The notes: generated by a model not told the origin, from the letters alone. Counted from the first letter of the whole stretch, positions 7,411 through 54,564 are shown. The stretch: 61,742 nt of DNA, filler included, from Platydemus manokwari (GCA_037951405.1; 6 parts of 6 records of this genome joined end to end with filler, not necessarily neighbours in it), one strand, 5' to 3'. Made by a program: numbers and translations.

Positions 7411-8227
7411 ATGTCTTATGCTGGTGATTTAAGTAAAAGAAAGATATATGTTGGAAATCTTCCACCTGAAATAAGGCATCGCGATCTTGACGATTTATTT
7501 TATAAATATGGTAAAATAATAGATATTGACATAAAAGATAGAAAGAAGCCACCTTTTGCATTTATTGAGTTTGATGATCCTAGGTTAGCTTAATAGATTT
7601 TAACTCCAGCATACAATTCAAACATTTTTATAGGGATGCTGAAGATGCAGTTAATGGTAGAAATGGATATAATTATGACGGTTTCAGATTGAGAGTGGAA
7701 TTTCCCAGAGGAAATAATGACAGCCATGGAAGCTATTCCGGTCGCAATAAAACGGACGAAAGAACATTCACCCGAAATAAAACTTCTGGACCTTCTCGTC
7801 GTTCAGAATTTCGGGTTTTTGTGTCTGGGCTTCCTCCTACTGGGAGTTGGCAAGATTTGAAAGATCACATGCGTGAAGCAGGCGATGTCGGTCATGCTGA
7901 TGTATTTAGAGATGGCACCGGAGTTTGTGAGTTTCTTAGAATTGAAGATATGAAGTATGCAATGAAGCATCTTGACGATACGAAATTCAAATCTCACGAG
8001 GTTATAAGTTTAAGATCCGGCAATATTAAAGGATAATTCAGGGAGAAATATCATATATTAGAGTAGAGGAAGATCGAGGAGCAAAAGGTAGGTCTCGGTC
8101 AAGATCTAAATCGAGAAGTTATAAAGTTCGTGTTAATGGAAGGCAAACACCAACTTATTCTCCGATGAGAAGAAGTTCTCCCACATATTCTAATTATTCT
8201 AGATCGCGATCTAAATCACGTACTTGA
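7411..8227 (+). CDS. SRSF1: Serine/arginine-rich splicing factor SRSF1/9-like, 3 exons (7411-7583, 7634-8000, 8042-8227), 241 aa
   Basis: RRM1 IYVGNLPP...[17 protein letters not shown], pseudo-RRM [15 protein letters not shown], short RS tail ending RSRSKSRT*. Introns of 50 and 41 nt at the DPR|D and SHE|G positions. Confidence 0.95.
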
Positions 8228-8850: not shown

Positions 8851-8950
8851 NNNNNNNNNNNNNNNNNNNNNNNNNNNNNNNNNNNNNNNNNNNNTTAATT
8901 AATTAANNNNNNNNNNNNNNNNNNNNNNNNNNNNNNNNNNNNNNNNNNNN
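8851..8950. other. Artificial contig spacer
   Basis: 44 N + TTAATTAATTAA (stop codons in all six frames) + 44 N; identical five times in the window. Confidence 0.98.
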
Positions 8951-21601: not shown

Positions 21602-21701
21602 NNNNNNNNNNNNNNNNNNNNNNNNNNNNNNNNNNNNNNNNNNNNTTAATTAATTAANNNNNNNNNNNNNNNNNNNNNNNNNNNNNNNNNNNNNNNNNNN
21701 N
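21602..21701. other. Artificial contig spacer
   Basis: 44N-TTAATTAATTAA-44N. Confidence 0.98.
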
Positions 21702-23469
21702 ATACTATATAAATTTTGCAATTCGCTTGGAATTCCTTTATTTACTGGTTACTAGTTTGTTGGTGCCCTCAGAGTATAGCATAGCCCTATTTTTATTTAA
21801 TAAATTTGTTTATTTAATTATATTATTTCAGAATTTCTGTGTAAATTTAGCGTATTTAAACAAATTTGTATTTTTTTAAGTAAATTTTTATTTTCGTTAT
21901 TATTATTATTTTATGTGTTCTATTTGCTATCCGATTTTAGTTTAGCATCATTTTAGGTTTATTTTTATTAAAAATTTTAATTATTTTTCATATTGTTATT
22001 CCTTACTGCACTGACAAATACAAATATACATAGATAATTAAGGAAGGACTTGGGATGTACATTAATTCAAGATAAGGATAACAGACAAAATCAAAACGAA
22101 TCATAAATAAATCTATGCATACCCGTAGTTGAACTCCTCCTGGTTTGTGGAGTTCCCACCAACTCGATGTCTCGATCATTGCATTATCTGGGATTGCCGG
22201 TTCTGTTTTGATATTTTTCTTTCTTTCACTTCGGCCGACATTTTCAGGATTATCCCCTTCCAGATAAATTACTCCATTCAAATTTCATTAGTCATCTAAT
22301 TCGATTCGTTGTTTTATATATGTATGGAATCTCCACATTTACGATTTTTTAAGGTGATTGAAATCTCCAATTCATTACAACATCATATTAAATAGATATT
22401 AATACCTGAAGAGAGGAGAAAGCAAAAAATATCGAGCGTTATTAAAAGTGAAACTTGTTTTTTGTCCTAAAAATTTACCATGAATTATAAAATGTATTTT
22501 GTAATTAACAGTGTATTAGACCCAGCCCAGCCCCTACCTAACTAATCAATAAAACACTTATTTTATTTTAAAACAAATATATAACATTACATCTATTATT
22601 TTATTTAGTTTATTTAAATTTAATATCGTTTACATCATTTTGTTACACTGCGTTCTGGAGTCAGGAATTACAAGTTTATAAATTATAATAAATTAAAAAC
22701 CTTCTGAAGTCTCAAAACCAGGCAAAACATAACAATACATTTCCAGTGTACTCTCGTAACAATCATAACTATATACCATTCTTAATTTCATCCAAAAAGA
22801 TATGGATAAGGATATAATATTTTGATCGACTGATGGATAATGAGATTTTTAATTGTATACTACCAATATTCACCACAGCAACCGGACTTGGTATTAATTA
22901 TCATCGCTCTAATTGCTAGACAAAGAAAATAGGCTAAAGTTCAAAAAAGAGATTCTAAAATAAAATTTAAAATCTACTGAATTTGTTGCAAAATTCTTTA
23001 TAATTTTTTGAAGATATTCTTTAGAAACCTTTTGAATTTTATTTTTAAGTACTTAAGAAGAGTTTCAGTTGATTGATATAAAATATTAAATTGACTAGAG
23101 CTTCAAAACCACGTAAAATTTTTTGATCATTTGAAAAAGAGATCACCATGAGTCGAATTGCAATTTATTGAAAATAAGCGAGGACCCCTTTTTTTAACAT
23201 TGGAAGCAAATTGAGAGATGTTCTAATTTTTTGCAATTATTTTATAAAAATAAGCAATGATATTATTAAACATATCTGTAATTAACGACCAAGATTTATA
23301 ACATCCCAAAAGTTAGATATTAACTGAATTATACGAATAAATCAAATATTATTATCAAATATAAAATTAAGTTATAAAATTATATCATACGCGAAAATTC
23401 ATTATAAACTCCAATTAAATATTGAAAACACTATTGCTATAGAATTAAAATTCTCTTTAAAAAACATAT

Positions 23470-23903
23470 TACTAACTTGTTGAGGTTACCTCTGTCAGAA
23501 AAGCAGTTTTAAAGCCTTGAACATATTATATTTAATGATAGAAAATAAAGTAAATCAACTGTATCCTTCTCTGCCATATATATTATTATTTGCTTGGTTA
23601 TTGACAAGCTGTCAAGTAGTACAATCAGCCATTTATCCACTTTACTGTGATAACAAGATCCTGTGTAATAATGTTACATATTATTTGAACAGTTTGGACA
23701 TTTACCTTATTTATATCTCCATTGCTATTTCCGTCAACAACTTTGCCACTAGTCCAATTATTAAATACATTAGATGCAAATGTAAGTCGGTGTCGTGAAA
23801 GTAGAGCTGGATAAATTAATAGATAAATATAATAAATGAAAATTTTTGTTACCAAATCGCTCATGGCACCCGATATCAAATAGAACAACTTTATGATATA
23901 CAA
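23470..23903 (-). pseudogene. Truncated tandem paralog of the F-type lectin gene at 25629-26596
   Basis: Homologous exons (LLSRHRLTFASN..KVVDG; SCYHSKVDKWLIVLL) but ATG is TTG, introns 1 and 2 have phase mismatches, and exon 4 is truncated with no CELEVYG or PAN exons. Confidence 0.8.
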
Positions 23904-25628
23904 GAGGAAATAATAATTTCAATTAGATTCTTTGAATAATATAGGATATGAGTATCAGAAAAAAACGTCACCTCAAACAATATTGCCAGTGATTTGAAAC
24001 TTTGTCAATAATGCCGTTGTGTAACAACAAAACACTCTTTGAATAAAATAAATATCAAGCGGCATTGACAATTCAATCAATAATAGGAATTAATAAATTA
24101 TTAATATTAATTTTATTACTATTATTATTATTATCATTTATTAATTATTTAATTAATTAATCCAGTTCCTGATGTACTAAGATCAATTCGAATCATTTTT
24201 AAAGTACCGCGGTTATTTTGAATTTATAGAATTTTCCTCTTAAAAATCTGAAGTTTTTGTTACATTTTCATAATTTTCTACGTTATATTTGCGCATTTTT
24301 ATTAATCTTTTATATTGTTCTGTGCAATTCACATTTCACAGAAAAAATACGCCACTAGAAAGCTCTTTTTGTCCACTTCCAGTATTGATAATGGCCATAT
24401 CATAAATTTCATTTTATCTCGCTGAAAATCTCGCTCAAATCTATTTTTAATTCAAAAACTTGTATAAGTCTGCATAAATGTCAGTGTTATTTAATTTCCA
24501 TTTGTTTCAATAATTATAATATTGGAGCCTATTTGCATTGAAGAAATTGAAATACAGACTTTCATAATAGGATTGTTTTAGTCATCATAGGACACCAATG
24601 ATATGGTTCAAGGTAACTTAGAGAACACTTCTGTACATGAAAGTAAACTTAATATTCAAGAGAATTGATAGGAAACAATAATATCGAGTGAAAACTTTTG
24701 TCAAGTTTTCACATTCACTATATATCACATTTCTCTATGGTAACAATGACCTGGACAACAATAAACGACATGTTTTAATAAATTTTCATAAATGCATTCT
24801 ATGATTACTGATCACAAGTATTATCACCATATTATCGATATTCAATATCATCACTATTATTATAGGTATCTCTATCATTTGACGTAATTGATATTTAAAT
24901 CGACATGGGAATTTATTGATTATTAATACCTGTCTTATCGAAACAGAATTTCTTTTTTACTCGTTTTGAAAGCATATCAGAATCACGTTTGATAAGTTCC
25001 TCCTATCATTGTGCCACGCAATTTGAATTTAAATTTATAAATGTTAAAATTGTCCACTTTGTCAATCTTATTGCGGGAATATATTTAACGATCTTAAATA
25101 CCACGACAGTAAATTTCAAATCTTTGTCTAGATGTTCATTACACCTACCCGGACGTCAGCAACTATGTTTACGTTTACTATAGTGCTGAGAGCTTATAAG
25201 CTGACCTTACTTCGCTAATAGAAAATCCAGTTAAACATGTTATTTAGCATATTCATATGTGGTGATATAATCTTCTTTAAATGTAATCAATTTTAAATGT
25301 TTCAAATACTCTGATTTCTATAGCTATCATTTTCAAATTGCATTTATCATCAAATCATAAGCATCACTGATCAATAAATCTTGAAATGATATATCGAATC
25401 TCTATCCTTGATTAACAATTATTTTAACATCTAACTCAATATAAGACAACCTCTAAAAAATCAAATCATTTAATGCGATTTATTTTATAAATTAAAATTT
25501 TTTTGACAACATCGATAACAGATAATGATTTTGTTAATATGAGTTAAGAAACAAAAATGTCCAATGCTGATTACGAGTTAATAAGTAAATATTGATTTGG
25601 ATTGAACAATCAATCACTTCATCAATTT

Positions 25629-26596
25629 TTAAAAACTCAGATAAAACCCGGCAGCATTGTTGTAGAGCAGGCATTGATTATCCTCTTCAAAAGTGAACGA
25701 AACACAATTCCATGTTTGTACACAAATTATCGAACAATCTATTTTCGATGTTGCCATGACATTGTCAATACATTTCACATTTTCATATATAGAGATTGGT
25801 CCAAGAAATTGAACTACAATCAATTTTACTCGATAATATTATATATTTATTAATGATCTCACAGGTCATTGAATTCTTTTTTATAAAATCGTAGCCGTAA
25901 ACTTCCAATTCACAAATATTTATTGCATCTTGCTCTCTGGGTTTTGTGACCACAATAGTTCGTGACACCTAAACGTATCAAATATCTAATAAAATAGTTC
26001 AATCAATACAAGTCTCGTCATGTTGATATTGGTTACAATCTCACCATGTGGTGGAGGACCTCGATAATATGTCACATTATAGAATTTAGGTGAAAATTTA
26101 TCGAATCGAGTTAAATTGTCGAAACTTCCGTAAAATGTTAAAAATGCGTTTTGATGGTCTTAAGATAATAATATAAAAAATATATTTAATGATATATCAA
26201 GTTAATTAACTCAAGTCGAGTGAACCCCTTCGGTTGGTTCTGCTATAAATTCGTATTTGAATGATAATCGATAAACGGTCTAGTAGTACCATCCACCATT
26301 TATCCACATTTTTCATTGCACTATGATAACAAAATCCTACGCAATATTAGATATACTTTAATAAAGTGGAACGTTTATCTCTACCGTGTTCCATGATTCC
26401 ATTGTATTTCCCATCAACAGCTTTGTCCTTAGTGTAAGGTAAATAACCATATGAATTCGCTGCAAATGTAGGTCGGTGTCGTGAAAGAAGATCTGAATAA
26501 AATAATCAATAAATTAAATAAACAAAAACTGAAATAGTTATTACTAATTTGACTCACGACACCCGGTATCAAATAACATAAACTGGTGATGTACAT
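25629..26596 (-). CDS. Secreted F-type lectin (fucolectin/FTLD) + C-terminal PAN/apple-like domain; 6 exons (26596-26545, 26492-26385, 26336-26211, 26158-26010, 25968-25863, 25813-25629), 241 aa
   Basis: Five GT-AG introns (52, 48, 52, 41, 49 nt) give an open 726-nt frame. Short hydrophobic leader; FTLD motifs KAVDG, CYH..WWMVLL, IRIYSR, ICELEVYG; PAN pattern CSIICVQTWNCVSFTF..QCLLY. Confidence 0.85.
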
Positions 26597-28547
26597 CAGA
26601 AAATAAGAATCTCAAAAGATATATTGACTAATATAGGATATGAATATGAGAGAAATTCTTGCAACAAAATAATACGACCAATGGCTGTTTGAAATATCAA
26701 TGCAGCTCCAATTTCAAAATACACATACTCATGAATTTCATTGCATCCACTTTAAACCTGAAAAATTGAAATTTGTAGTCATGTCATATAATAATATGAT
26801 ACCCAAAATATAGTGTTATCGGCAACACATTAGTCTCCATAGAAATAAGTTATAAGAAAACGTTAGTTTGAATACTGTCTTAGTTACCGTGGTTATAATG
26901 AAGTTTAAAAAAGAAGAATTTAATTCAATTTAATTAATATGGGTTAAGTAAAAAAATGGAAAGTAAATTTAATTTAATTCCTTCAATATTTAGTAACTTT
27001 TCAGTCATCTATCTTTGTATTGAGAAATGTCTTTAATAAATGATGCTAGATAATTTCTTGTAAATATCTAAACTTATCATTTTGGAGGTAGTATTTGAAT
27101 TTATTCTGTTTTGATCTAAATGATAACCAGTTTAATTTTGGGAACAATTAATCAATTAATTAATTACTGAAAACTCATTGACCTTACTGCAGATTCTGTA
27201 TAAACATAGTTTAACGGTTTAATTTGGAAAATGGGTTATTGCTATAAATTCTGAATTACTGAATGCTTCTTAAAAATACTTCAAAAACGTTAAAAATATT
27301 TTCTTTTGTTAAGTGTCTTTAATAATATTTTATGACGATGATTTTATAATTTGCTAAAATATTGTGGCCGAAAATCAATAATAAATGTGGGTTGCAACAT
27401 ATTGAAAAATAATCATGCTGCAATAAGGAAATTTTCATAGAAATAAGTAAGTTGAATAAAAATTAACTTTAATTTTACCAATTTAATTTTTACTTATTCA
27501 TTGTAATAAATTTTTCTGTAAATATTAATATTTTATTGTTGTCGTGGCTTAGATTAACCAGACCTATAGAATATTTAATACAAGATTTCGATATATGATT
27601 ATGAATTGACTCGGATATTTTAAGCGTTTCATGTTCACATGGAATTTCAAAATCTTAAAAACATTTTGCTAATTATATTTTCCTAAGACAACCACTTAAC
27701 AGTCATTAAGAGAATGAAATTAAAATTATCGAAAATTATGGTGAGTTTAGTTAACGACTTTTCGGCAAGTGTAAGATCAGTTATCCAGGAATTTGATAAA
27801 GAAGGAACTATTTTGAGAATTTGAATTGAATTGACACACGGGATTTGGAATTGTAAATAAAATTCAAACAATCTAATTGATTATCACATAAGATTGAATT
27901 GCAAACCTAATATTTTGGAATACATCGAATAAATATGATATCAAAGCACTATATTAAGACCAGAAAGCTGGATTTCTTTATTATGATTGAAATTTCTAAC
28001 ATTGAGATCAGACCTAGCAATAATCTATAATCCATCATCATCCATTTCAACAAATAATCATCAACTAGCCTTTTAAATAATTTAACATAATCGTTCTCAT
28101 TATTATAAAGAAAAAGATAAGAAATAAAATATTAGCACCAAATAATAATAGAGTAAAACAAATTAAAAAAAATAGAAATAAATCAAATTAAAATTCGACC
28201 AATACACAAATTATTATTATGTAATACAACTGATATTTATTATAAAAACAAGTTGAATGTTGATAGATCAAGTGAATAATTTAAATAGAAAAATAAGCAT
28301 GTTAATAAGTAACTATTGATAAATAACTATTAAAATATCTATAACGATGTAGTAAGCAAATAGAATAGGCACAAAATTACACACAGGAAACCAAACTGCT
28401 GACAGAATTATCACAAATTATTATGCATAGTTCAACCAATCATAAAATTGAGAAAGTCAGTGAGTTATCATTATATCAAGTTATTCAGGTAATGCATATT
28501 TGATTTTTATCAAGAACGATAATTTGAATATTATAGCAAAACACAGA

Positions 28548-28842
28548 GGCTAAGGTATAGACTACTCTGAACATTGTTTTATCAAACTATTTTTACATTG
28601 TTACCATGGTTACCAAGGTGATTTGGTTATTAAAAATTAAAATTTGTTATTAAAAAAATAATTTTTACCAAAATTTTTTTTACCATATTCCTGCGCCTTT
28701 GCTATTAATTGCATGTCAGGGAGACCGATAAACTTTCTCTCGAAATCATTTGTTAAATATTCATTTATATTTATATTCATAATATGTAGGTAGATTAAAT
28801 TAGTTTGATAAAACAATGTTCAGAGTAGTCTATACCTTAGCC
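28548..28842. mobile_element. MITE with 42-bp perfect terminal inverted repeats, superfamily unresolved
   Basis: GGCTAAGGTATAGACTACTCTGAACATTGTTTTATCAAACTA at 28548-28589 and its reverse complement at 28801-28842; no clear TSD. Confidence 0.85.
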
Positions 28843-29434
28843 CTCTTAAACATTAAAGAGTTCATTGATTTAAAATATCTGGTGATTAAGAGAATATTTC
28901 CGTATTTGTTCCAATCGTGCAAAAACTCTTTAAAATTAATTGATTTTGGTATTTTTTGGTTAAAATAAATTATATTGTTTTAATAAATTTATTATTTGAA
29001 AGTAATTTGAACAACAAAAGAAGTCATTTCTAAGATTTTCTTAACTTTTATTTAAAACAAACAAATCAAACAATTTAAAAAAAAATTAATTATCTTTTTT
29101 TAAAAATATTTTTCTAGAGATCTTAGTCTATCAATAATTATAAAATAAGATAACAATATTTTATTTAATTAATATTTAATTACCTTATATTAAACAATAA
29201 TAGATAATTTCAAAATATTATTTTTTACTATGAAACTTATTATTAAATTATTAAAATTGTAATTAAAATATTTTTATTAAAATTTCTTATTTAAAATTAT
29301 AATTTATTTTTTCAAAGTTTCCTCTCAATTACATGAGAACTCTTCTCGATTTCAATTAAATTTTTTCATTGCCTGGACAATCCATACCACAATCAAATTA
29401 CATTCATTCATGATATTATTGATATCATTTTTAT

Positions 29435-30115
29435 CAGAGGTGGCCAACTTTTGTGTACGTAAGATCGACTTTTCATTTGAATAACGTCTTTTGATCGACC
29501 TGTTGTCATATGCATAGTCTAACTTTAAAATCCATATCCAAGGAAATTAAAGTAACAAGAATGAATGTTAAAATATTTATTAATTCAAATTAGGTAAGCA
29601 CAAACAAAGATTTAAAATCTTTAACTAAAAAATCATAATTCGGTGTATACCCACACAAAGATAATAATAAAGAGTCATGAGTATGAGAATCAGTCAACAC
29701 AGAACGTTGTTTGCTTTTCGTTAACTTTAAATAAGAAAACGCTGATTTACAAAGGTACGTAAATCAGAAACACGAGTAAATATATTCACAAAATTTCATT
29801 ATTTAGGGATATTTTGCTCGGTTGACGTATTTCCAAAAATCATTCTCAAATCTTCTGGCTTGTAATACCAAATCATTTTGGAAAATTATAATTTCATTTT
29901 CTAAAGACACTCGCTCAATAAGAAATACGTCAGAAATATTTTGGCTAATGCTTTTTATGCTTAAATCTTTTTTAAAAGGAAAAAATATAAATTCTACAAT
30001 TTCTTTAATTTTTTCAAAATCCTGGAATCTTATTTAAAAATCTTTAACAACTTTTTGGATATCTGCGACGTATTTATCAATGTTATAATTAATATTATTA
30101 TGTTTATGTAGGTGG
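29435..30115 (-). mobile_element. 3' end of a hAT (Buster/GTF2IRD2-like) transposon with dead transposase C-terminus
   Basis: One frame with three stops: YVADIQKVVKDF*IRFQDF...FWKYVNRAKYP*...CF*FTYLCKSAFSYLKLTKSKQRSVLTDSH (hAT dimerisation motif). TIR CAGAGGTGGCCAAC at 29435. Confidence 0.88.
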
Positions 30116-30625
30116 ATATGTGTTCGGCTAATAAAAAGCCCTTGATAGTTGGTCTCATACATAAGAACTCCACACATGTCTCGACATTTTTTCCTGATAA
30201 ATCGCACGGCATCCTGTCGGTGAACTGACATGAGAACTACTGGTAATTCTACTTCTTGGGCTCTGTCTTTCAATCTCTCCACTGATATTTTCCGGATTCT
30301 GTGGGTACGATCCTTGAGAGCTACTGCATTGAGAGGTACAAATATTATGATTCCATGCCCCGCAATGATAACGAATGACAGCCTTCGTGACTTGACATTC
30401 GCGAATTTTTGTTCTGTAAAAATCCAATTCCTGATAAATGAAATATGTTTCCTCTGGTCCTGTGGTAACGTTGTGAACGTGCATGGTGGGACATTCCATT
30501 AAGTCCACCATTGAAAATATGGTTGAATGCTTCGGATGTTGACAATCATACGCCGTTAATGGAGTTGATTTCCCGATTAGTCCAAGTATGAGCAATAATT
30601 TAAGAATCGTATTGAATGATCCGCC
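30115..30625 (-). pseudogene. Endogenous chuvirus/Monjiviricetes-type fusion glycoprotein fragment, internally deleted and 3'-truncated
   Basis: Hydrophobic leader then LTAYDC..SMVDLMEC..IYQ..IRECQV..YHCGAWNH, matching the xYDC..SL..C..Q..C.V..CGxxSH pattern of chuviral G. A second frame carries RFIRKKCRDMCGVLMYETNYQGLFI, similar to the downstream CGY..TEHPKLFI motif. Confidence 0.8.
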
Positions 30626-31386
30626 TCAATCCTCCTAACCCATTTGTCATTGGTTGGTTTACTACTACAAAATAGCTCCATCCACCTTGTGTTTGTATGT
30701 ATGGGCCCAGATATTGGTCTGCTAATCTAGCCAACATATTTAGCTCGTTTTAGAACTGATTTATATTCATTTTTGATGCAGTCAGCACCTTATCAACTAG
30801 GCATGTAATGGCTAGTTTTGCTCTAGATTCCGTAAGCCCTGCTTCTGTTAATTCTCTCATTACTTGTTCTGGTTCGATTTCATCGAGTTTAGCAAAGATG
30901 TGATGTATTTTCCTGGTGTATCCTTTGATTTCCTCTATCAAATCCTCATAACCTGCTGTGTCTGCCTGAGGCAATCGATGGGTCTATTCCCTTTGCGATC
31001 CTAAGCAGATAATTTTTTACCTCCGGTTTTGGTAAGTTTTCGATTTGATCTACTAAATGCATTAGTAATTGTGCGTGTGTTTGCCAATTTGTGTTCGGTG
31101 TTCGCATCCCTTGTGGTGCGGATGTAGTTGGTTGTGGTTGAGTTGTTACTCCACTGTTCGAGTGCTGCACACGAGTAGATTTGGGTGGTCTACCCCGTGG
31201 TCTCCGTGTTTGGCTTGGTGCGGGCATTGGAGGCTGAGTTACTCCGTTGTCCGGCTCTGGCGCTGGTGTCGTTACATCAACTATCTCGATTGGAGGTTCA
31301 TTTCTCTCCGTGTCCTGAAAAAGATTGTTTTCCATGTTGATTTGGAGAAATTGTTCCAAATCATTATTTGTGATGTCCTCGAGCGT
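30600..31386 (-). pseudogene. AT-hook + Bcl-2-like ORF upstream of the viral glycoprotein; one frameshift, one premature stop, open to the contig edge
   Basis: RRPRGRPPK AT-hook (about 31180-31206); BH1-like EQVMRELTEAGLTESR (30869-30822); after TAA at 30750-30752 the same frame continues to BH2-like DQYLGPYIQTQGGWSYFV. Confidence 0.72.
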
Positions 31387-31486
31387 NNNNNNNNNNNNNN
31401 NNNNNNNNNNNNNNNNNNNNNNNNNNNNNNTTAATTAATTAANNNNNNNNNNNNNNNNNNNNNNNNNNNNNNNNNNNNNNNNNNNN
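31387..31486. other. Artificial contig spacer
   Basis: 44N-TTAATTAATTAA-44N. Confidence 0.98.
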
Positions 31487-32460
31487 TTTTCTCTTAAATC
31501 GGTTTTAGTTTTGTCATCCAATTTAGTTGTGGAAGTTCCAGTTTCGTTTGTTTCTACAATTGTCTTTTCCCATATTTTAGTTTTTGAATTAAAAGTATAT
31601 CCGTTTTTAATAAACCCATGCATTTTAGAAAACGTAGTAAATGTTTGTATAAACCAATTAGCAGTAACCGTACTGATTTTATCAAACTGGTTATTATCAA
31701 CTGCTGTTATTACTATGATTAAATTATCTCTAATATTTTGGCGACTTCCTTCATCGATATATTGTAATAAATCTTCCCATTTAAAATCTTTCAATAATTT
31801 TACTTTTTCTCTTAAATCGGTTTTAGTTTTGTCATCCAATTTAGTTGTGGAAGTTCCAGTTTCGTTTGTTTCTACAATTGTTTTTTCCCATATTTTAGTT
31901 TTGGAATTAAAAGTATATCCGTTTTTAATGAATCCACTTATTTTAGAAAACGTAGTGAATATTTGTATGAACCATTGGGCGTTAACGGTATTGATTTCAT
32001 CAATCTGGTTATTATCAACTGCTGTTATTATCATTATTAAGCTATCCTCAATTTTTTGACGACTTCCTTCATCGATATACTTTAATAGATCTTTCCATTT
32101 AAAATCTTTCAATAATTTTACTTTTTCTATTAAATCGGCTTTTGTTTTGTCATCCAACTTAGTTGTGATAGTTTCACTTCCACTGGGTTCCACAACAGTC
32201 TTTTCCCATATTTTAGTTTTTGAATTAAAAGTGTATCCGTCTTTAATAAAACCATGTATTTTAGAAAGTTTGGTAAAGATACCTAGGAACGAAAGATAAA
32301 TCTTTTTATTCAATTTGTCCAATTGTTTATTTTCCACAAGCGCAAAGACGTGATTGATATCCTGTTTTACTTTCTGTCTAAAAATTTCGTCGATATACAC
32401 TAGTAAGGTCTCCCATTTAAATTCTTTTAATATCTTCACCTTATTCCTCAAATCCACTAC
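31487..32460 (-). repeat. Coding tandem repeat, 318-bp (106-aa) unit, about 3 copies visible
   Basis: TTTTCTCTTAAATCGGTTTTAGTTTTGTCATCC recurs at 31487 and 31805; GYTFNSKTKIWEKT occurs three times. Confidence 0.95.
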
Positions 32461-35400
32461 GGCTTTTTCACTCAATGTATTTTCTTCCTTAAATTTCAAA
32501 TCTTCTTGATTAATTAAATCGATAATGTGTTCAATGTCATCAAACCAATTGAAATTAATATCGACATTTTTATCTTTGGGTTGATTCAGTAACAGATTGA
32601 TTCGTTCTATCCATAGATTTTGATCGATTCCACGAATTCGTTTAATGATATCGATCCAATTATCTGGGAGATTAAATTGAATTGTTTTTATAATTTCTGT
32701 CGGTGTTTGAGAAATATTAGCAATTTTTATTTTTTGTAAGTGCAAAACGATATCAATTAAAGTGTTCAAAAATTCCACATCAATTTTATCAAATTGCTCA
32801 TTTTCAACGAAATTGATAAATTTTTCAATTGTTTTACTGATTTCTTCTCTCTTGTCCTTGTTTAAATGATTGAGAAGCACAACCCAATTGATTTGTTTCA
32901 AAATTTTAAAATAATCGACGGATGTTTTTGTTATGACTTCTATTTTGCTGGCTTTTGGTATTTTGTCAAGGACTTTTATTTTGGAAATCTTCTTCAGTTT
33001 TCTAATGAATTTCTTGATATATTTTATCAGTTGAATGTCCACATTTTTATAATCATGATTTTTAATCAATGAAATGAATTTCAGTATTTTTTCTGAGATT
33101 TGTACTCTCTTGGTGGAATCAAAATAATTCAGAAATTGTTCCCATTTGATTTGTTCTAAAATCTTAAAGATATTCACATATTTTGATGATAAATCCTTTT
33201 CCTTGTTTTTTTCAGGTAGTAATTTTTTTAATTGATCAGTAATATCGATTATGAATTTCTTCAAATGAGGAGTTATCTTATTAAATTGGTTTTTCTTTAC
33301 AAAAGATATGACCAATGCAATTTTATCTAATAAATCCGGGTTTTCACATTCATCAATTCGGTTTATTAGAGTCTCCCATTTAATCCGTTCTAAGAATTTT
33401 ATGAGTTTTATCAAATGAGCTTTATTGTCACTTTTATTCGCACTTGGTTTTACTTTTTTTAATTTAGTAAAAACTTCAGTTATGAATTGAAATAAATCTG
33501 TATTGATCTTGTCGAATTGTTTATGTCGAACGTAATTAAATATCAATTTCATCTTTTCCATAATTTCAGGTCGTTTTAACTCATCGAAATGATTGATTAA
33601 ATCCTCCAATTTCAATCCTTGTAAGAATCGAACCATGCTGATTATTTCGGTGTGTTTATTATTTATTTCACCTGTCGAAACAGTTTTGACATCTTTCTGT
33701 TTTTGTTTCAACTTTACCAGCAGATGAATTGCATCTACTACAAACTGATGTATGACTGCAGTAATCTTGTCGAATTCTTTGTTTTGTACTAATCTAATGA
33801 ACAATCGTATTTTCTCAATCATCTCGGGTTTCTTGACACTAACTAATTTTTCAATTAAATTCTCCCATTTCAAATTTATCAAAAAATGGACGATTCCCAT
33901 ATAATGCTCGAATTCGTTATCTTCCCTATCATATGTATTGCAATCGCATGTTTTTCTAATATTTATTCTTCTCAACTCTTTGATTATTTGATGCATACCA
34001 TTTAACAAGTTTAAGTTTATTTTAGTCTCATCTTTTCTTTCAATGAGTTTGATGAATGTTTTTATTTTCTCGACGATTTCTTCTCGGCTATTTTCATCAA
34101 AATATTCCACTAATTTCTTCCACTTGAGTGTCTTCAAAAATTTGACATATCTTAAGCCAGTGGTGAATATTTCCTTTTCCTTGTGTTTTTCCTTTTTGAT
34201 ATTGATTATTAAGTCAATTCTCAGTCTGTCTAAGGATGTAATGATTTCATTGATTGAATTTAGAAGTTCAAAATGGATTTTGTCGAATTGTTTGTCACGA
34301 ACCAACTCAATAAAAGCACGGATTTTGTCAGTTATTTGTTTTTTCTTACTCTCCTCCAAGTCATTCAAAAGATCTTCCCATTCCAAATGATCCAATAACG
34401 ACAGATAATGTTTCGATGTTTTGATTATTAATTTAACATTTTCATCAGTTTTGTCATGGTCGAAAAGAATTCTGATTCTGATTTTGAAAATTGTTTTCAC
34501 AATTTCACTGAAAGATTGAATCAGATCATCATCAATCTTGCCTAATTGATCGTTCTGTATGAAAGAAATGAATGATTTTATTTTGGAAATGATCTCCTCA
34601 CTCCGTGCCTCATCATAACGTTTCACCATATCTTCCCAATCAATTTTTTCAAGCAATTCAATATATCTCAATACGTTTTTAACGACATTTTTGAGTTTGG
34701 TAAAATCATTTCTATAAGTAATGAGATATCGAATTTTAAAGGATATTAATTTCGTTACAACATCCGTAATAAATTCTACCATGTCACTATCGATTTTGCG
34801 AAGTTTCTTCTTTTTCACAAGCCGAATAAATGACTCTATTTTCTCAATAATGGCCGGTCGTTTACTTTCTTCGTAATAATTGAGAAACTCATTCCATTTT
34901 GTTTTTTTCAGTATTTTGGAATATCTCTTCAAAATGGAATAAATCCTTTTTCTAATGTCTTTATCATCGATATCCCCGACTTTTGTGTGTCTCACTCTTT
35001 TGAAAGGTTTCAGTTTGATTCGGAACTTGGTTTCAAATCTGCAACGTAAAAATAAACGCATTTTCAGGTGTAATGACAAATTAAATTTGACGTAACATAT
35101 TTTCATTTTTATTTGTAGAAAAATATTAATAAATCGAAACGGTATCGATATCGATAAGAAACACATAAAACAGTGGGTTGTAATGAATCAATTTCACTTT
35201 TGTTTTATCGATAAAAACTGGTGTTCAGTTCTCATTTGAGAATAAATCATCCAATCGAAATTTTTAGATTCAGAACGAATTAAATCAAATCAAATTTACC
35301 TTTGACTGTGATCTGTCGATGGGTTGACGATCCATAAACGATGCTTTGCTATTTGGTGATGATACGGTTTTAAAACAGTCTAAAATCCTGATTTAAACAA

Positions 35401-37200: not shown

Positions 37201-40200
37201 AGCAATAAAATAAACAAAATTGTAATGGTTTTGATTAATTTATTTTAATAAAATAACTCAACATGTTTCCGAAATTTGATGTTTTAATGATAATTTGGAA
37301 TTATAATTCTGAAGTACCAACCTGATGGACAAAGGCCCCAAAAGGCCTTATAATTATTATTTGGAATATTTTATGGAAAATGCTAAATTATAAAAAAATG
37401 TGCTCGGTCTGTTAACAGAGAAAGAGAAAGAGAGCAGTGTTTCTCAGCACAAAATGAGAAGTGAAATTTTTCTTATGAGTTTTAATTTTTTTATGAATAA
37501 TTTGTAATGAAAAACTTGAAATCATTACATTTCATGGCTTAAATCGACATTAAGAAATATAGTCAAGTTTATTACGATTTATTTATTATTTAAATTTAAT
37601 ATTTTATTTTTATATAATTTCATATTTTGTTTCAAAATTATGCTGCCCATCAATTGTAAATTAACATGCACAATAGGCCTTCAATATTGAAAGATTAGTC
37701 CTCCCTATGATGATACAATGTAGTTTTTTATAAAAAGTTATAATATTATTGGATAAGTCATAAAAACTACGAAAATATTCATGAAAACCAAGGAAATAAG
37801 CGACACATATGCGATAAGCGCACCTTGGCGATGGCCATTCAGATTCTTCCTTTATATCAATCCATGTTGGAATTCAATAAACAACTGAAGAGTACAAACA
37901 AGTGGCCACAAACATAGAGATTCACCAGCGGCACTAGAGATACAAGAAAATTTGGTAACAGACTGACGTGTGAACGACTCTATAAAATGAAAAGTGAAGC
38001 TCTGAGATATCAAGTGAACAAGCAAGATAAACCTATAAAATGAGTTGGATTTCACAAGCATCTGCCAAGCATTTTGGTACATACTTTTATTCGGTGTGAC
38101 TTTAACATGATTTTTCTGACAACCAGTCTTTGTGGTTGTCTTCTGTTTTGCCGTTTGACTTTCTGGTTCTGATTTCATCTTGCGTGATTATGTATTGTTG
38201 ATTTATAGTGATTAAAAATATTTTTAGTGATAATTAGGATTTATAAATTATTTCTATCAACGAATTATAAATCATTATTTTCGCATAACAAGTTTTTGGG
38301 AAAATAATAGAGAAGATCGAAAATATATCAGACTTTTTATTGATGATTTACAGTAACACTAAATTACAAGTGCATAATTTACCACTTTTTGTAAGAGACA
38401 TTGTCTGAAGAAAATTATGGAATTATTAGTTATAAATTTGGGCCCAATATTTCCACAATCTATTGCTATAGATTTATCGAATAATTTTATTAATTTTAAA
38501 CTCAAATTTGGTGAAGGGCATGCAAACTTCGTTGTGGAAACTTTCTAAAAATTTTCTTGTAATTAAAAACGAAATCATATCATCGCCCTAACACCAAAAA
38601 TTGGGAGGGATAAGTCTCTGCACAAAAGCTAATATATATGTTAATATGTTATTTTTGATTGGTAATATATTTTGTTTATTATTTGTTGTGTTCATTCATA
38701 CCTACAATCTTAATTATCTGGAATTTACTACTACTGCATCTTTATTACCGTGGAGTCCGATAGTTATGGTAATAATCTCTAATAGACTTTTGGAGTCATG
38801 TCGTAAATTTGACACACACTACTTCGTAACAACCCATTAATTTCTAGATATTTTCCATTCATAACCCCAACAGAACTCGTGATATCTTATTATTGCTTAT
38901 CAATCTTAGTCACAACACATCGTTTCCAGTATCATTATTAATGTCATTTTTCATTATCATACCGAGCACCCAAGGATGTTAAATACCATACATATTTTTA
39001 TCTCATTTTGATGTTATTGGGAACTTAGAGAGGTCGATAATAATTATATCAATATGTTTCGTTTTAATAAAAATTAAGAAAAGTTTTATTTATTTGGTAA
39101 TATACTCGTTGGAACAAACGTACCATGATTTGGAAGCCACAATTCCAGTTGATAAGCTCATAAAGCAAATATCTGTTAATGTTGATGTTTCTATTTCTGC
39201 TTTATTTGGCATTTAATAATAATATTACAAATAATAATAATACAAAATTATTAGAATCAACTATTGAAGATCGATAAATCAAGAAATAAATGCTTTACGC
39301 TTTCAAAATTCTAGATTTATAGTACCTAGATATAATAACAAAAAATTTTACGATTTACGGTAACAACCGTTACTTTATTTGTTGTTTTCAGAGAGAAATT
39401 TGCAGAATAGACAATTGATTATTGGAATTTTTTATCTTATAAATTATAACATGCTCTCCACTATAATACTCTTTCAATATCTCAATATTATTATACAATA
39501 GTTTCATGAATTTTAAAAAGATTTTTCAATAAATACTTTTATTACTCTGTTTTTTGTTCTTAGATGCACACAGACACCATTTTAGATTTGTTATACTGTG
39601 AGTCTCTTATCGACATTCAATGAGTGGCTGTTTTAAAATTTGTTATTGAAACAAATATACTTTAGTAAGTACATTTTTCATTGAAAATCACTTATTTTGT
39701 GGATTTCAAAATGATAAAACAAATCACTTTCATTCCAAATAGCTGCAAATGGATAAAAATCGAACAATGCCTACTCTAATACGGAATGAGTTATCTAACC
39801 ATAAAATACTATTTGATAGATTTTGGGTTAACAAAATACCTTGTAGTGGATATTTGGGATGAAGGTAAGAAATGGGATCCTTGACCTACTTTCGTTATAA
39901 TGAATTTTTGCTCATCACAATTTTATAACTTAATTTTATATATCACTCCTATGTTTGATTTATTCGTATAATTCAGTTAATATCTCAATTTTTAAAATGA
40001 CTAATAGTGACAAAACATAGTTTTAAAACCAAGTTCCTATTCTAATCACAACACTTCTCTAAGATTATTTGATTTTTTAAATTTAAATTTTATAATTATA
40101 AACCGACATGTTAATTACAGATATGTTTAATAATATCATTGCTTATTTTTATAAAATAATTGTAAAAATTGAGAATATCTCTCAATTTGCTTCTAATGTT

Positions 40201-40992
40201 AAAAAGGGGTTCTCGCTAATTTTCAATAAATTGCAATTCGACCTGCTTTTTTCATTTTTTAAAATAATCAAATTTTGGAAGATTTTGAAGATCTAATGTA
40301 TTTAATATTTGATTTCAAACAACTAAAATACTTCTTAAGTGCTTAAATATAAAATTCAAAATGTTTTTAAAGAATATAATTATATAAACTATATAGAATT
40401 TTTCAATACACTCAAACAATTTAAAATTTCATTTAGGATCCTTTAATTTAACTTTAGCCGATATTTGTATTATGATATTTCAATTGGTTACCACGTGTTT
40501 TTTATTATCGCTTTCCTTATGAATTGTAATACAATAACCTTTACACCAATGCCGATAATCAATTCTGTATTTAATCACCATACATTGTAGTAAGTAGATT
40601 CTACTATTTCATGTTAACTTCAAAAGTTTATTGTAAAGAAGATTTGAAGTTTTGATTAAAAATTAACACAATTAGATGTAATCTCATTTTAAAATTTTAT
40701 GACATTTTAAGTAGGCTATTGTTCGCAAAAGATATGAATAATTAATATTTAGAAACCTAAATTTTGCATTACATCTTTAATATACTATTTTCCAATACCT
40801 GATAGAAAACATGTGTATTTATATTTTCTAGATTTTTCAATCTTACTTATATTTAATATTTCTTTCAAAACAATTTCTATTACTGATAATAATAATCAGT
40901 ATATTTCCGAAAAATATCATTGTTTAAAATCGAAATATTAACAAACTATCATAAACATGATAAGCATGAAGAAAATTTCGCTATATTCCACA

Positions 40993-42919: not shown

Positions 42920-43019
42920 NNNNNNNNNNNNNNNNNNNNNNNNNNNNNNNNNNNNNNNNNNNNTTAATTAATTAANNNNNNNNNNNNNNNNNNNNNNNNN
43001 NNNNNNNNNNNNNNNNNNN
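42920..43019. other. Artificial contig spacer
   Basis: 44N-TTAATTAATTAA-44N. Confidence 0.98.
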
Positions 43020-47077: not shown

Positions 47078-47855
47078 ATGTCAGTAATTGCATATTTCCT
47101 TGGTAAAATAAAGTATAAGGAAGCATATTCTTTGCAAAAACAAATTGTCAAACTGTCTTTAGATTTCAGCGCGCATAGAAAATTCAATACTATATTGTTA
47201 TTAGAGCATTTTCCAGTTTATACAGTTGGAATTCGAAATAGTGATACAACAACAGATTATTCAGATTCATATACTAAACACTTGACTTCAACTGGTGCTG
47301 ATTTTGTAAAGTAAACTCTTTATGAATTTGTTAGACATAATTACGCCATTTTCTTGCAGAACTGATCGAGGAGGATTAATTACATTTCACGGGCCAGGAC
47401 AACTTGTAGCATACCCAATTTTAAATTTAAAATCAGAAGGTTTTAAAAACAGTTCCCGTTGGTATGTGGAAACCCTGGAAAATACAATAATCGATACTTG
47501 TTTATCGTTTGGATTGAAAGCTAAACGTACAAATGACATTGGTATATGGGTTTCCGAACATCGTAAAATAGCATCAATCGGTATTCATAAACGATTATCC
47601 ATTACCTATCATGGAATGGCGCTCAATTGCGATGTGGATTTAAAATGGTTCAATAACATCGTTGCGTGCGGTTTGGTTGGCAAATCGATGACATCGTTGT
47701 CGGTTGAATTGGGTAAACGAATTTCAGTTCGTGATGCATGTGAGAATTTCTTGAAATCTTTCGAAAATAATTTCGGTCGCAAAGTTGACTACATTGATTT
47801 ATCAAACGGTGACAAGTCTGAGATTGAATCACTAAAATCGGAAAATGTATGCTAA
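47078..47855 (+). CDS. LIPT2: Octanoyltransferase / lipoyltransferase 2 (LipB-like), 2 exons (47078-47310, 47360-47855), 242 aa
   Basis: LLLEHFPVYTVGIR, TDRGGLITFHGPGQLVAYPI, KIASIG, HGMALN, IVACG; 49-nt phase-2 GT-AG intron. Confidence 0.96.
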
Positions 47856-52398: not shown

Positions 52399-52498
52399 NN
52401 NNNNNNNNNNNNNNNNNNNNNNNNNNNNNNNNNNNNNNNNNNTTAATTAATTAANNNNNNNNNNNNNNNNNNNNNNNNNNNNNNNNNNNNNNNNNNNN
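52399..52498. other. Artificial contig spacer
   Basis: 44N-TTAATTAATTAA-44N. Confidence 0.98.
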
Positions 52499-53437: not shown

Positions 53438-54564
53438 CTGGTTTCAATACCACTTCTTGGAGTTGGTATTTGGTTGAAAGTCGACAAATCGTCGGTCCAT
53501 AGACTCTTATCCATGGTAAAAGTTGATGGAGCTGTCCATAGTTTAAATAATTCCAATACATCTTTGATATCAATGTTTGCTCTGTTCCTCATCGTTGTCG
53601 GTTCGATTTCGATGATAATCGGTTTTTGTGGATGTTGTGGAGCTCTAAAGGAAAATAAGCTACTGCTCTATGTGGTAGGTTTTGAAATTTTATTGTTTTG
53701 TTTAAAACATATATCGTTTGATTTGTAGTACGTTATTTTGGTATCACTGTTAATCGGTTTGAAAGTAGCTCTGCTCATTGTGGTAGCCGTCAGAAAAGAA
53801 AAGGTTCCCTTTGATCCAATAAATATTTGAATTTCGATTGTCAATGAATTTTAGATTCATGATGTCATTCAAAAAGAATTCCAATCAATCCTGTTCAAAC
53901 ATTACCGAGGTTACGGTACAAATAATGCCACTTCATTTGCCAAGATCTTTAGTGCCATAATGATTAGGGTTAGGAAATTCGATTTAAGTCTACTATTTTC
54001 ATTATTGTAGAATCCTATCTACTGATAATAAAAAAAAATAAATCACTTAAATCAAACTGTTCATATTAATATCTCTGCCTTTAAATTCATTATTTCCACA
54101 GAGAGAATGCTGTGGAATTAGAGGAATTGAAGATTTCGATAAATTTACTTCGTGGAAAATTGATCCCACTGAGCCCAATGAAAGTCCCATTGCCTGTTGT
54201 CGTTTTAAATCCGAAATAAAATCACAGTTGGGAAATAATAGTGACAATGGTATTTTAACCAGTCATCATCTCGTTGATATTTTTCCTTTCAGTTTCTCTG
54301 GATACTCTCAAAGCAAATATCATCAATTCAGAATGTCTCACATCCAAAACGTCAGCGTATGTCATCAAAACTGGTTGTGGTGACGCTCTTTGGAAAACGT
54401 TGCATCGTGAAATGAAACTTATTCTGGTCATAATAGCCGTCGTCATATTGGTTCAGGTTGGAATTTTGAGAATGAATTTCGATATTGAAATGATTTATAT
54501 TAAGATCATATGCATCATATTCGCATGTTGTGTGATCAACAAGAGTTACGAGAAGCTGCGATAA
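53438..54564 (+). CDS. Tetraspanin, 5'-partial; exons 53438-53674, 53729-53803, 53855-53968, 54102-54249, 54293-54456, 54505-54564
   Basis: LLGVGIW, GFCGCCGALKEN, large loop ECCG..PIACC..GC, four hydrophobic segments; all introns GT-AG and phase-consistent. First coding exon not located. Confidence 0.92.

Follow-up and report, generated by a model that had tools for sequence, protein, structure and literature searches.

The closest described systems to the locus studied here are the Burro elements, giant gypsy-like long terminal repeat (LTR) retrotransposons of planarians comprising Burro1-4/GYPSM1 of Schmidtea mediterranea and a Burro-like element of Dugesia tigrina (PMC6431247). According to the part of that paper dealing with them, Burro-2, -3 and -4 carry a BCL2-like motif, and the region between BCL2 and the protease is an env, in frame and placed between gag and pol, with multiple matches to mononegavirus fusion glycoproteins of arthropods and fish; the same part likens this env to gypsy Env, reports BIR domains in the elements and records decaying Burro fragments with stops and frameshifts in Dugesia japonica. 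Envelopes of the gB type are described in Ty3/gypsy errantiviruses, with a GAG-ENV-POL arrangement in flatworms, nematodes and bryozoans, and some of their ectodomains lie between two membrane spans (PMC13524379, in the sections on these elements). A chuvirus-type glycoprotein is carried by the multi-copy Anakin BEL/Pao elements of mosquitoes (PMC7642597, in the portion concerned), and some poxviral Bcl-2 proteins have no Bcl-2 homology (BH) motifs (PMC11209288, likewise in the portion concerned). In a stretch of 61,742 nucleotides from Platydemus manokwari (GCA_037951405.1; the whole stretch is hereafter the window), we found what is very likely a broken, truncated piece of a multi-copy env-type gene, of probable flatworm Ty3/gypsy GAG-ENV-POL origin (a Burro-like errantivirus retrotransposon), where a likely Bcl-2-like domain runs into a gB-type envelope. 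An initial annotation of the window knew of no described example of such a layout. The account of planarian Burro in PMC6431247, with a BCL2-like motif followed by an in-frame env, supplies one, and the window fragment is a further example and not a new kind.

The window consists of six contigs joined by five identical 100-base spacers, across which adjacency is meaningless. The element occupies the extreme end of contig 21702-31386 on the minus strand and runs off the contig at 31386. Neither the joining nor the run-off was noticed in the initial annotation, which also overlooked further breaks in the glycoprotein near 30346 and 30266 and the end of the window's match to other copies near 30107-30122. 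Its order of Pro/Thr region, helical domain, hydrophobic stretch and LTAYDC glycoprotein was seen in our translations; over 1.27 kb of the minus strand, the Pro/Thr linker gives way to a helical domain, which is followed by a hydrophobic segment and then by a class III glycoprotein in two pieces. The features of the element are given below; the comparison set was formed by related contigs from four public runs (X1-X4), of a kind that is not on record.

31387..31486, no strand: artificial spacer (44 N, TTAATTAATTAA, 44 N) at the contig end; nothing upstream of the element is covered
31114..31386, minus strand: linker, acidic and then Pro/Thr-rich, of low complexity, from the translation; frame open to the contig end
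31180-31206, minus strand: AT-hook-like RRPRGRPPK in the linker (Pfam AT_hook E 1.7, 9.2 bits against a cut-off of 17.4)
30988..31113, minus strand: helices at the N-terminus of the helical domain (7-23 and 29-39 in the model, predicted local distance difference test score (pLDDT) <50; no Pfam family)
30946..30986, minus strand: break 1, frame change, with stops in both frames; contigs from 4/4 runs differ here
30669..30983, minus strand: helical core, probably Bcl-2-like, by third-position bias, BH-like segments and models
30822-30872, minus strand: BH1-like segment within the helical core
30750..30752, minus strand: break 2, in-frame TAA; 6/6 listed X3 contigs differ, as do X1, X2 and X4
30669-30716, minus strand: BH2-like segment with GGW within the helical core
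30617..30632, minus strand: break 3, frame change between helical domain and hydrophobic segment; X2 and X3 contigs quit the alignment at 30627
30572..30616, minus strand: hydrophobic segment of 15 residues, mean Kyte-Doolittle 2.0
30542-30559, minus strand: LTAYDC, start of the ectodomain, from the translation
30347..30559, minus strand: start of a class III (gB-type, Monjiviricetes-like) ectodomain, by its PF24664 match
30127..30309, minus strand: further piece of the envelope, separated from the first by a large internal gap and lying in another frame, by its likeness to Smed_errantivirus_2; no Pfam match alone

The helical frame spans 30603-30983 on the minus strand and holds a single in-frame TAA. 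The three lesions proposed in the initial annotation were all recovered, the shift at about 30985-30950 as a frame change between 30946 and 30986, the TAA at 30750-30752 as such, and the one-base shift at 30626 as a second frame change near that position. The envelope frame has no initiating Met, in keeping with entry from a polyprotein that begins upstream. The upstream frames lead into the envelope across the breaks, and one X3 contig, about 85% alike and covering 30366-30785, places the two parts side by side; because this contig spans that interval, the BH2-like segment adjoins the envelope in a diverged copy too. The hydrophobic segment is predicted to be an internal signal or anchor of Env and is a candidate tail anchor of the Bcl-2-like domain. 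The helix encoded by 30988-31023 would sit at the place of a BH4-type first helix. The segment previously taken as BH3-like sits where this first helix would be, Pfam gave neither motif, and the segment has no Asp at the Gly-Asp pair that we take to be part of BH3.

The envelope matched PF24664 over positions 5-96 of the 653 in the profile, with an E of 2e-8 and 33.1 bits (cut-off 27), and still did so without its hydrophobic part (E 1.7e-6), and the ESM Atlas gave the same family at 0.83, as a lead only. It was compared with the 229 domain I-II sequences in supplementary file 2 of PMC13524379 by hand counts on three of the six flatworm rows and one of the three BEL rows, a comparison with no true chuvirus G and no tree. 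Identities over 30359-30448 were 16/30 to Smed_errantivirus_4 and 15/30 to Smed_errantivirus_6, and over 30127-30249 they were 19/41 to Smed_errantivirus_2 (at the row end) and 17/41 to Smed_errantivirus_4; the mosquito BEL-71_CQ row gave 7/30 and 7/41. VYQE or IYQE was found only in six flatworm rows and ETNY only in two flatworm rows of the 229, in which alignment gaps may hide words, and 'chuv' had no matches in this table. By the hand counts and the flatworm-only words, and not by a tree, the envelope falls in the gB-type flatworm (C1a) group, and among the envelopes compared it appears closest to those of planarian GAG-ENV-POL Ty3/gypsy errantiviruses. Taken by itself, the envelope points to a flatworm as the likely host. 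The earlier label of a chuvirus-type glycoprotein is therefore borne out by the Pfam family, but not as an origin in chuviruses or BEL/Pao, given that the envelope is nearer to planarian errantiviruses.

The related contigs from the four runs matched the element at 80-99%. In X3, contig depth was about 380-2400 over 30149-31386 vs 41-49 over the flank at 29567-30051, although contig depth is no copy number, which counts against our reading; X1 and X2 contigs covered the element but not this flank. Over 30640-30900, a single deep variant was accompanied in X3 by several shallow variants that differed by about 4-17%. The presence of several variants within a run, together with a depth far above that of the flank, supports multiple copies. 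For the codon count, 38 of the 39 listed differences were used, the stop-site row being dropped, and the rows are not independent events. Differences shared by at least two contigs or belonging to the deep variant fell at third codon positions of the helical frame in 17/19 cases (binomial P 6e-7), whereas private shallow differences did so in 4/19 (Fisher P 5e-5 between the groups). This contrast is the pattern of a transposing family, with selection along active lineages and neutral decay after insertion. Because the shared differences concentrate at third positions, the helical domain is a selected, real protein region, and its frame is under purifying selection in the multi-copy family.

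As the related contigs differ from the window at the break sites, the breaks are decay private to the window copy, and programmed recoding was rejected for the same reason. The X2 and X3 contigs carry extra sequence at 30345/30347 relative to the window, and an X2 contig continues past 30122, where the window turns to AT-rich host DNA; an internal block and most of the envelope have therefore been lost from the window copy. What is left of the envelope has neither a complete ectodomain nor a C-terminal membrane span, being cut internally and ending near 30110. The window copy makes no such fusion protein and is a dead remnant.

The helical domain probably has a Bcl-2 fold. The BH1-like and BH2-like segments and the R-to-W spacing of 48 that had been noted before are present, the spacing being 42-49 in eight Bcl-2 proteins, and the best BH2 window, QYLGPYIQTQGGW, has the GGW expected of BH2. 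With BH2 anchored, the BH1-like 17-mer at the family spacing had a p of 0.0019-0.0068 (20,000 shuffles), and its score at that spacing was equalled by 72 of 12,353 natural blocks. The hydrophobic 15-mer starts 21 codons past the GGW Trp, vs 15-25 in six tailed Bcl-2 proteins, and would provide a C-terminal anchor, but it lies across break 3 and the envelope needs such a segment anyway. A phmmer search of the PDB with the shorter piece returned Bcl-xL in 3/5 rows (E 1.6-1.9). When the single-sequence models were searched with Foldseek, Bcl-2 proteins made up 11 of the top 12 and 25/48 rows for model 1 (best E 0.85) and stood at rank 1 and in 8/46 rows for model 2 (best E 0.74); a second look at the Foldseek hits placed Bax at rank 6 (Z 4.3). 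In the VIA wide structural search with model 1, 5/50 rows had the Bcl-2 fold (Z 4.4-4.9), with BHRF1 at rank 20 (Z 4.9, root mean square deviation 4.2, 94 aligned), and in BFVD, where the best E was 0.84, an adintovirus Bcl2 stood at rank 13 (E 2.4).

A good deal weighs against this assignment. The Pfam search gave no row for PF00452 at E up to 1 or 10, the hhalign probability was 1-5%, and the position of NWGR in BH1, which comes after the BH1-like 17-mer, reads TESR. A profile of our own was built from nine viral and cellular-type proteins from motif scans, eight of them above the Pfam cut-off (L147 was left out for having no Pfam match, and L146 was kept though below the cut-off). With it the domain scored 7.3 bits, vs 28.6-74.0 for left-out members; no full shuffle out of 3,000 and 9/3,000 shuffles keeping GGW reached this score, but 124/3,000 shuffles keeping the BH2-like 15-mer and 8 of 2,032 motif-enriched natural decoys did. 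Whole-domain alignments with BH2 fixed gave Z values of -0.9 to 2.7. The models were all-helical with pLDDT of 54 and 49, Foldseek TM-scores were at most 0.44, and the Foldseek ranking is not independent of the motif match, as the PDB contains a disproportionate number of Bcl-xL entries and sequence contributes to the Foldseek score. Bcl-xL was absent from the PDB phmmer results of the longer read-through piece, and 0/50 rows of the VIA search with model 2 had the Bcl-2 fold. With neither a PF00452 match nor NWGR, the domain is Bcl-2-like and no demonstrated member of the family. The proposal of the initial annotation that a Bcl-2-like domain is joined to a glycoprotein thus stood in its layout and in a probable Bcl-2 likeness, and did not obtain a significant Bcl-2 match in Pfam, PDB phmmer or Foldseek. 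The lack of a significant library or fold match and of NWGR would suit the same retroelement carrying a matrix-like, capsid-like or unrelated helical cargo with a GGW/BH2 likeness due to chance. So would the unrelated helical proteins at the top of the two wide structural searches, with best Z values of 7.2 and 6.1, the origin of most of the profile score in the BH2-like segment, and charged residues at a buried-helix position. We nevertheless regard such a cargo as unlikely, in view of the BH1-like match at the family spacing once BH2 is anchored, the tail helix at the Bcl-2 distance and the BCL2-like motif published at the same position in planarian elements (PMC6431247, in the part on Burro); no capsid fold appeared among the rows shown for Foldseek and the wide structural searches. 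Judged on its sequence alone, Bcl-2 identity is somewhat favoured, and with the published context it is likely.

As to the origin of the fragment, we are confident in a retrotransposon rather than an RNA-virus fossil, although several points count against us: the window holds no gag, pol or LTR of the element, the contig stopping at 31386, and 0/34 downstream frames of at least 48 codons on the contig matched a retroelement family, an absence that is as expected for a truncated copy. The missing pol and LTR would also suit the fossil remains of a chuvirus or mononegavirus, both negative-strand RNA viruses, whose glycoprotein gene bore an N-terminal Bcl-2-like extension and was later passively copied in the host genome; PF24664 is defined on Monjiviricetes, and chuviral glycoprotein fossils are common in arthropods according to the relevant portions of PMC7642597 and PMC10084718. 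This is very improbable, because the identity of the envelope to the errantivirus rows from planarians exceeds twice that to the mosquito BEL row of chuvirus type (with no true chuvirus G among the comparisons), and because variants at several divergence levels, with selection on shared differences and none on private ones, indicate a long-lived transposing family. No N or L gene family was found above the cut-off on the contig, and IMG/VR gave no locus for the envelope, which is weak evidence as that collection is mostly prokaryotic. From the earlier pair of options, 'RNA virus or env-bearing retroelement', the second was retained and the first was not supported. AT-hook-like low-complexity tails can follow integrases. 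A BEL/Pao retrotransposon of the Anakin kind, with its chuvirus-type env placed after the integrase and the Pro/Thr stretch as integrase tail, would account for many copies of such an env (PMC7642597, in the part on Anakin). This origin too is most improbable, since the BEL-71_CQ identities are less than half those of the planarian Ty3/gypsy rows (15-16/30 and 17-19/41) and no integrase family was found in the upstream frame. Least credible is a gene still producing the fusion protein, either as a live host gene or through recoding by programmed frameshifts and read-through of the stop: the frames do join over a short distance, and the guanine plus cytosine (GC) content of 30100-31300 (36-56%) exceeds that of the 600 bases below (20-29%), but other copies differ at the break sites and the envelope is without a large internal block and without about two thirds of its length.

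Our preferred assignment, to a Burro-like Ty3/gypsy errantivirus, draws on likenesses to several known systems. With Burro, whose env is in frame and matches mononegavirus fusion glycoproteins, the fragment shares a probable BCL2-like motif directly before env, many copies and decayed fragments (PMC6431247, in the part cited), while Gag, MATH, BIR, ankyrin and ubiquitin-like domains, protease, reverse transcriptase and LTRs lie outside the window contig, and the likeness was drawn by description. The 90 codons before the helical domain are, unlike in Burro, a Pro/Thr linker with no ubiquitin-like match. Against the assignment, the matched envelope family is linked to the Bcl-2-bearing Burro elements by description only, and 'bcl' had no matches in the text of PMC13524379 consulted and its seven supplementary files (with long cells cut at 400 characters). 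With Smed_errantivirus_1-6, which have an HSV/gB-type ENV, the element shares motifs of envelope domain I-II, one at either end (YQE..F..T...EC....CG and P.VL.S....D..RF..K......C....Y.TNY.G), and 41-53% identity over the two pieces, which is at or above the 32-64% that the Smed rows shown have among themselves over the full domain. It is set apart by belonging to a different family of another genome and by its broken, truncated state. Anakin has in common a class III glycoprotein of the same Pfam family multiplied by a retrotransposon, but the identity is far lower and the superfamily and host are others; no Bcl-2-like leader is noted in the portion of PMC7642597 on these elements. The Bcl-2 proteins of DNA viruses (PMC11209288, in the portion concerned) resemble the domain in the GGW of a BH2-like segment, the 48-residue spacing from the BH1 Arg and a hydrophobic tail about 20 residues on, and differ from it in NWGR, in the profile score and in being free genes and not part of a polyprotein.

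Judged from the GAG-ENV-POL layout in print and from what is general for membrane proteins, an intact polyprotein would begin in the cytosol with Gag and the cargo domains; its hydrophobic segment would insert into the endoplasmic reticulum (ER) and direct the gB-type ectodomain to the lumen, and a second membrane span would bring Pol back to the cytosol. Cleavage just before LTAYDC might then release the envelope, with the Bcl-2-like domain staying behind in the ER membrane by its tail anchor and facing the cytosol, like cellular Bcl-2. There it could hold pro-death BH3 proteins of the host and so prolong the life of the particle-producing cell. We lean towards a single helix serving both as Bcl-2 anchor and as Env signal, and give a slight preference to an anti-apoptotic role over other uses of the domain, a role that fits the BIR domains reported in Burro (PMC6431247, same part). 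A fuller proposal is more doubtful: that a host Bcl-2 gene was captured with its own tail anchor, which was reused as the internal signal of env, so that one cleavage gives rise both to a fusogen in the lumen and to a death regulator anchored in the ER, in a family under purifying selection that perhaps extends to a compact-genomed flatworm beyond the planarians. Such a shared anchor and signal is not stated in section 7 of PMC6431247 or in the sections of PMC13524379 consulted, the original Burro description (Grohme et al. 2018) being outside this scope. The discovery value of the locus is small, since the layout is in print for Burro and the fragment is only a broken 1.3 kb. What it adds is evidence at the level of codons for selective maintenance of the helical, probably Bcl-2-like cargo in a distant family; because selection keeps it, this is working cargo and not a passenger. 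The shared helix, if true, would explain how a death regulator from a retroelement envelope polyprotein is placed at the ER, and would allow the proposal, published but untested, of interference by Burro elements with apoptosis of the host to be tested directly.

Wider homology searches yielded candidates that were rejected. The sole match of the helical domain among 1.84 billion representatives was a 6,147-residue bacterial repeat protein that aligns through GGWSY, and a metagenome locus (L001) proved to be a GC-rich bacterial gene with eight residues in common; word-index searches of longer proteins gave no matches and IMG/VR no loci for the helical domain. Full Bcl-2-family genes were seen in three other loci (L013:235-885, L032:274-759 and L084:698-1072; PF00452 E 1e-21, 7e-28 and 8e-12), whose contigs, two of them long, are filed in bacterial bins (Nitrospirales, Dehalococcoidia and the PVC group); any of contamination, a resident virus or real transfer may account for this. 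A viral contig (L002:341-922) encodes a Bcl-2 protein with BH4 and no hydrophobic tail, presumably resembling a patchwork of vertebrate Bcl-2 and Bcl-xL segments.

No LTR-like direct repeat was found on the contig that bears the element. A 295-base element at 28548-28842 has 46-base inverted ends that are 98% complementary and an X3 contig depth above 11,000, and is a very high-copy repeat resembling miniature inverted-repeat transposable elements. Two exon-like copies at 23570-23963 and 26239-26655, about 70% alike and 2.7 kb apart, with a weak PAN-domain match between them at 25632-25838 (E 0.002, below the cut-off), are possibly a tandemly duplicated host gene. A dispersed repeat at 22926-23407 and 39895-40465, about 81% alike and inverted, is common to two contigs. 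The next contig carries, at 31487-35187 on the minus strand, a frame that is open for 1,250 codons and is not the pol of the element. Diverged helical units, each some 75-106 residues long, make up this frame, and KW..L..Y.DE recurs in them; repeats of 318 bases, nearly identical, lie at its 3' end, at the contig break, and no Pfam family above the cut-off was found in it. The remaining features of the window were the following.

8851-8950, 21602-21701, 31387-31486, 42920-43019 and 52399-52498: the five identical 100-base artificial spacers
1000-2271: ordinary host exons, divergent tubulin, which we take to be beta
7584-8036: ordinary host exons, RRM protein, presumably SRSF1-like
47310-47855: ordinary host exons, LipB-type lipoyl transferase
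53438-54564: ordinary host exons, tetraspanin

The short introns and a GC content of 26-29% suggest a compact animal genome.

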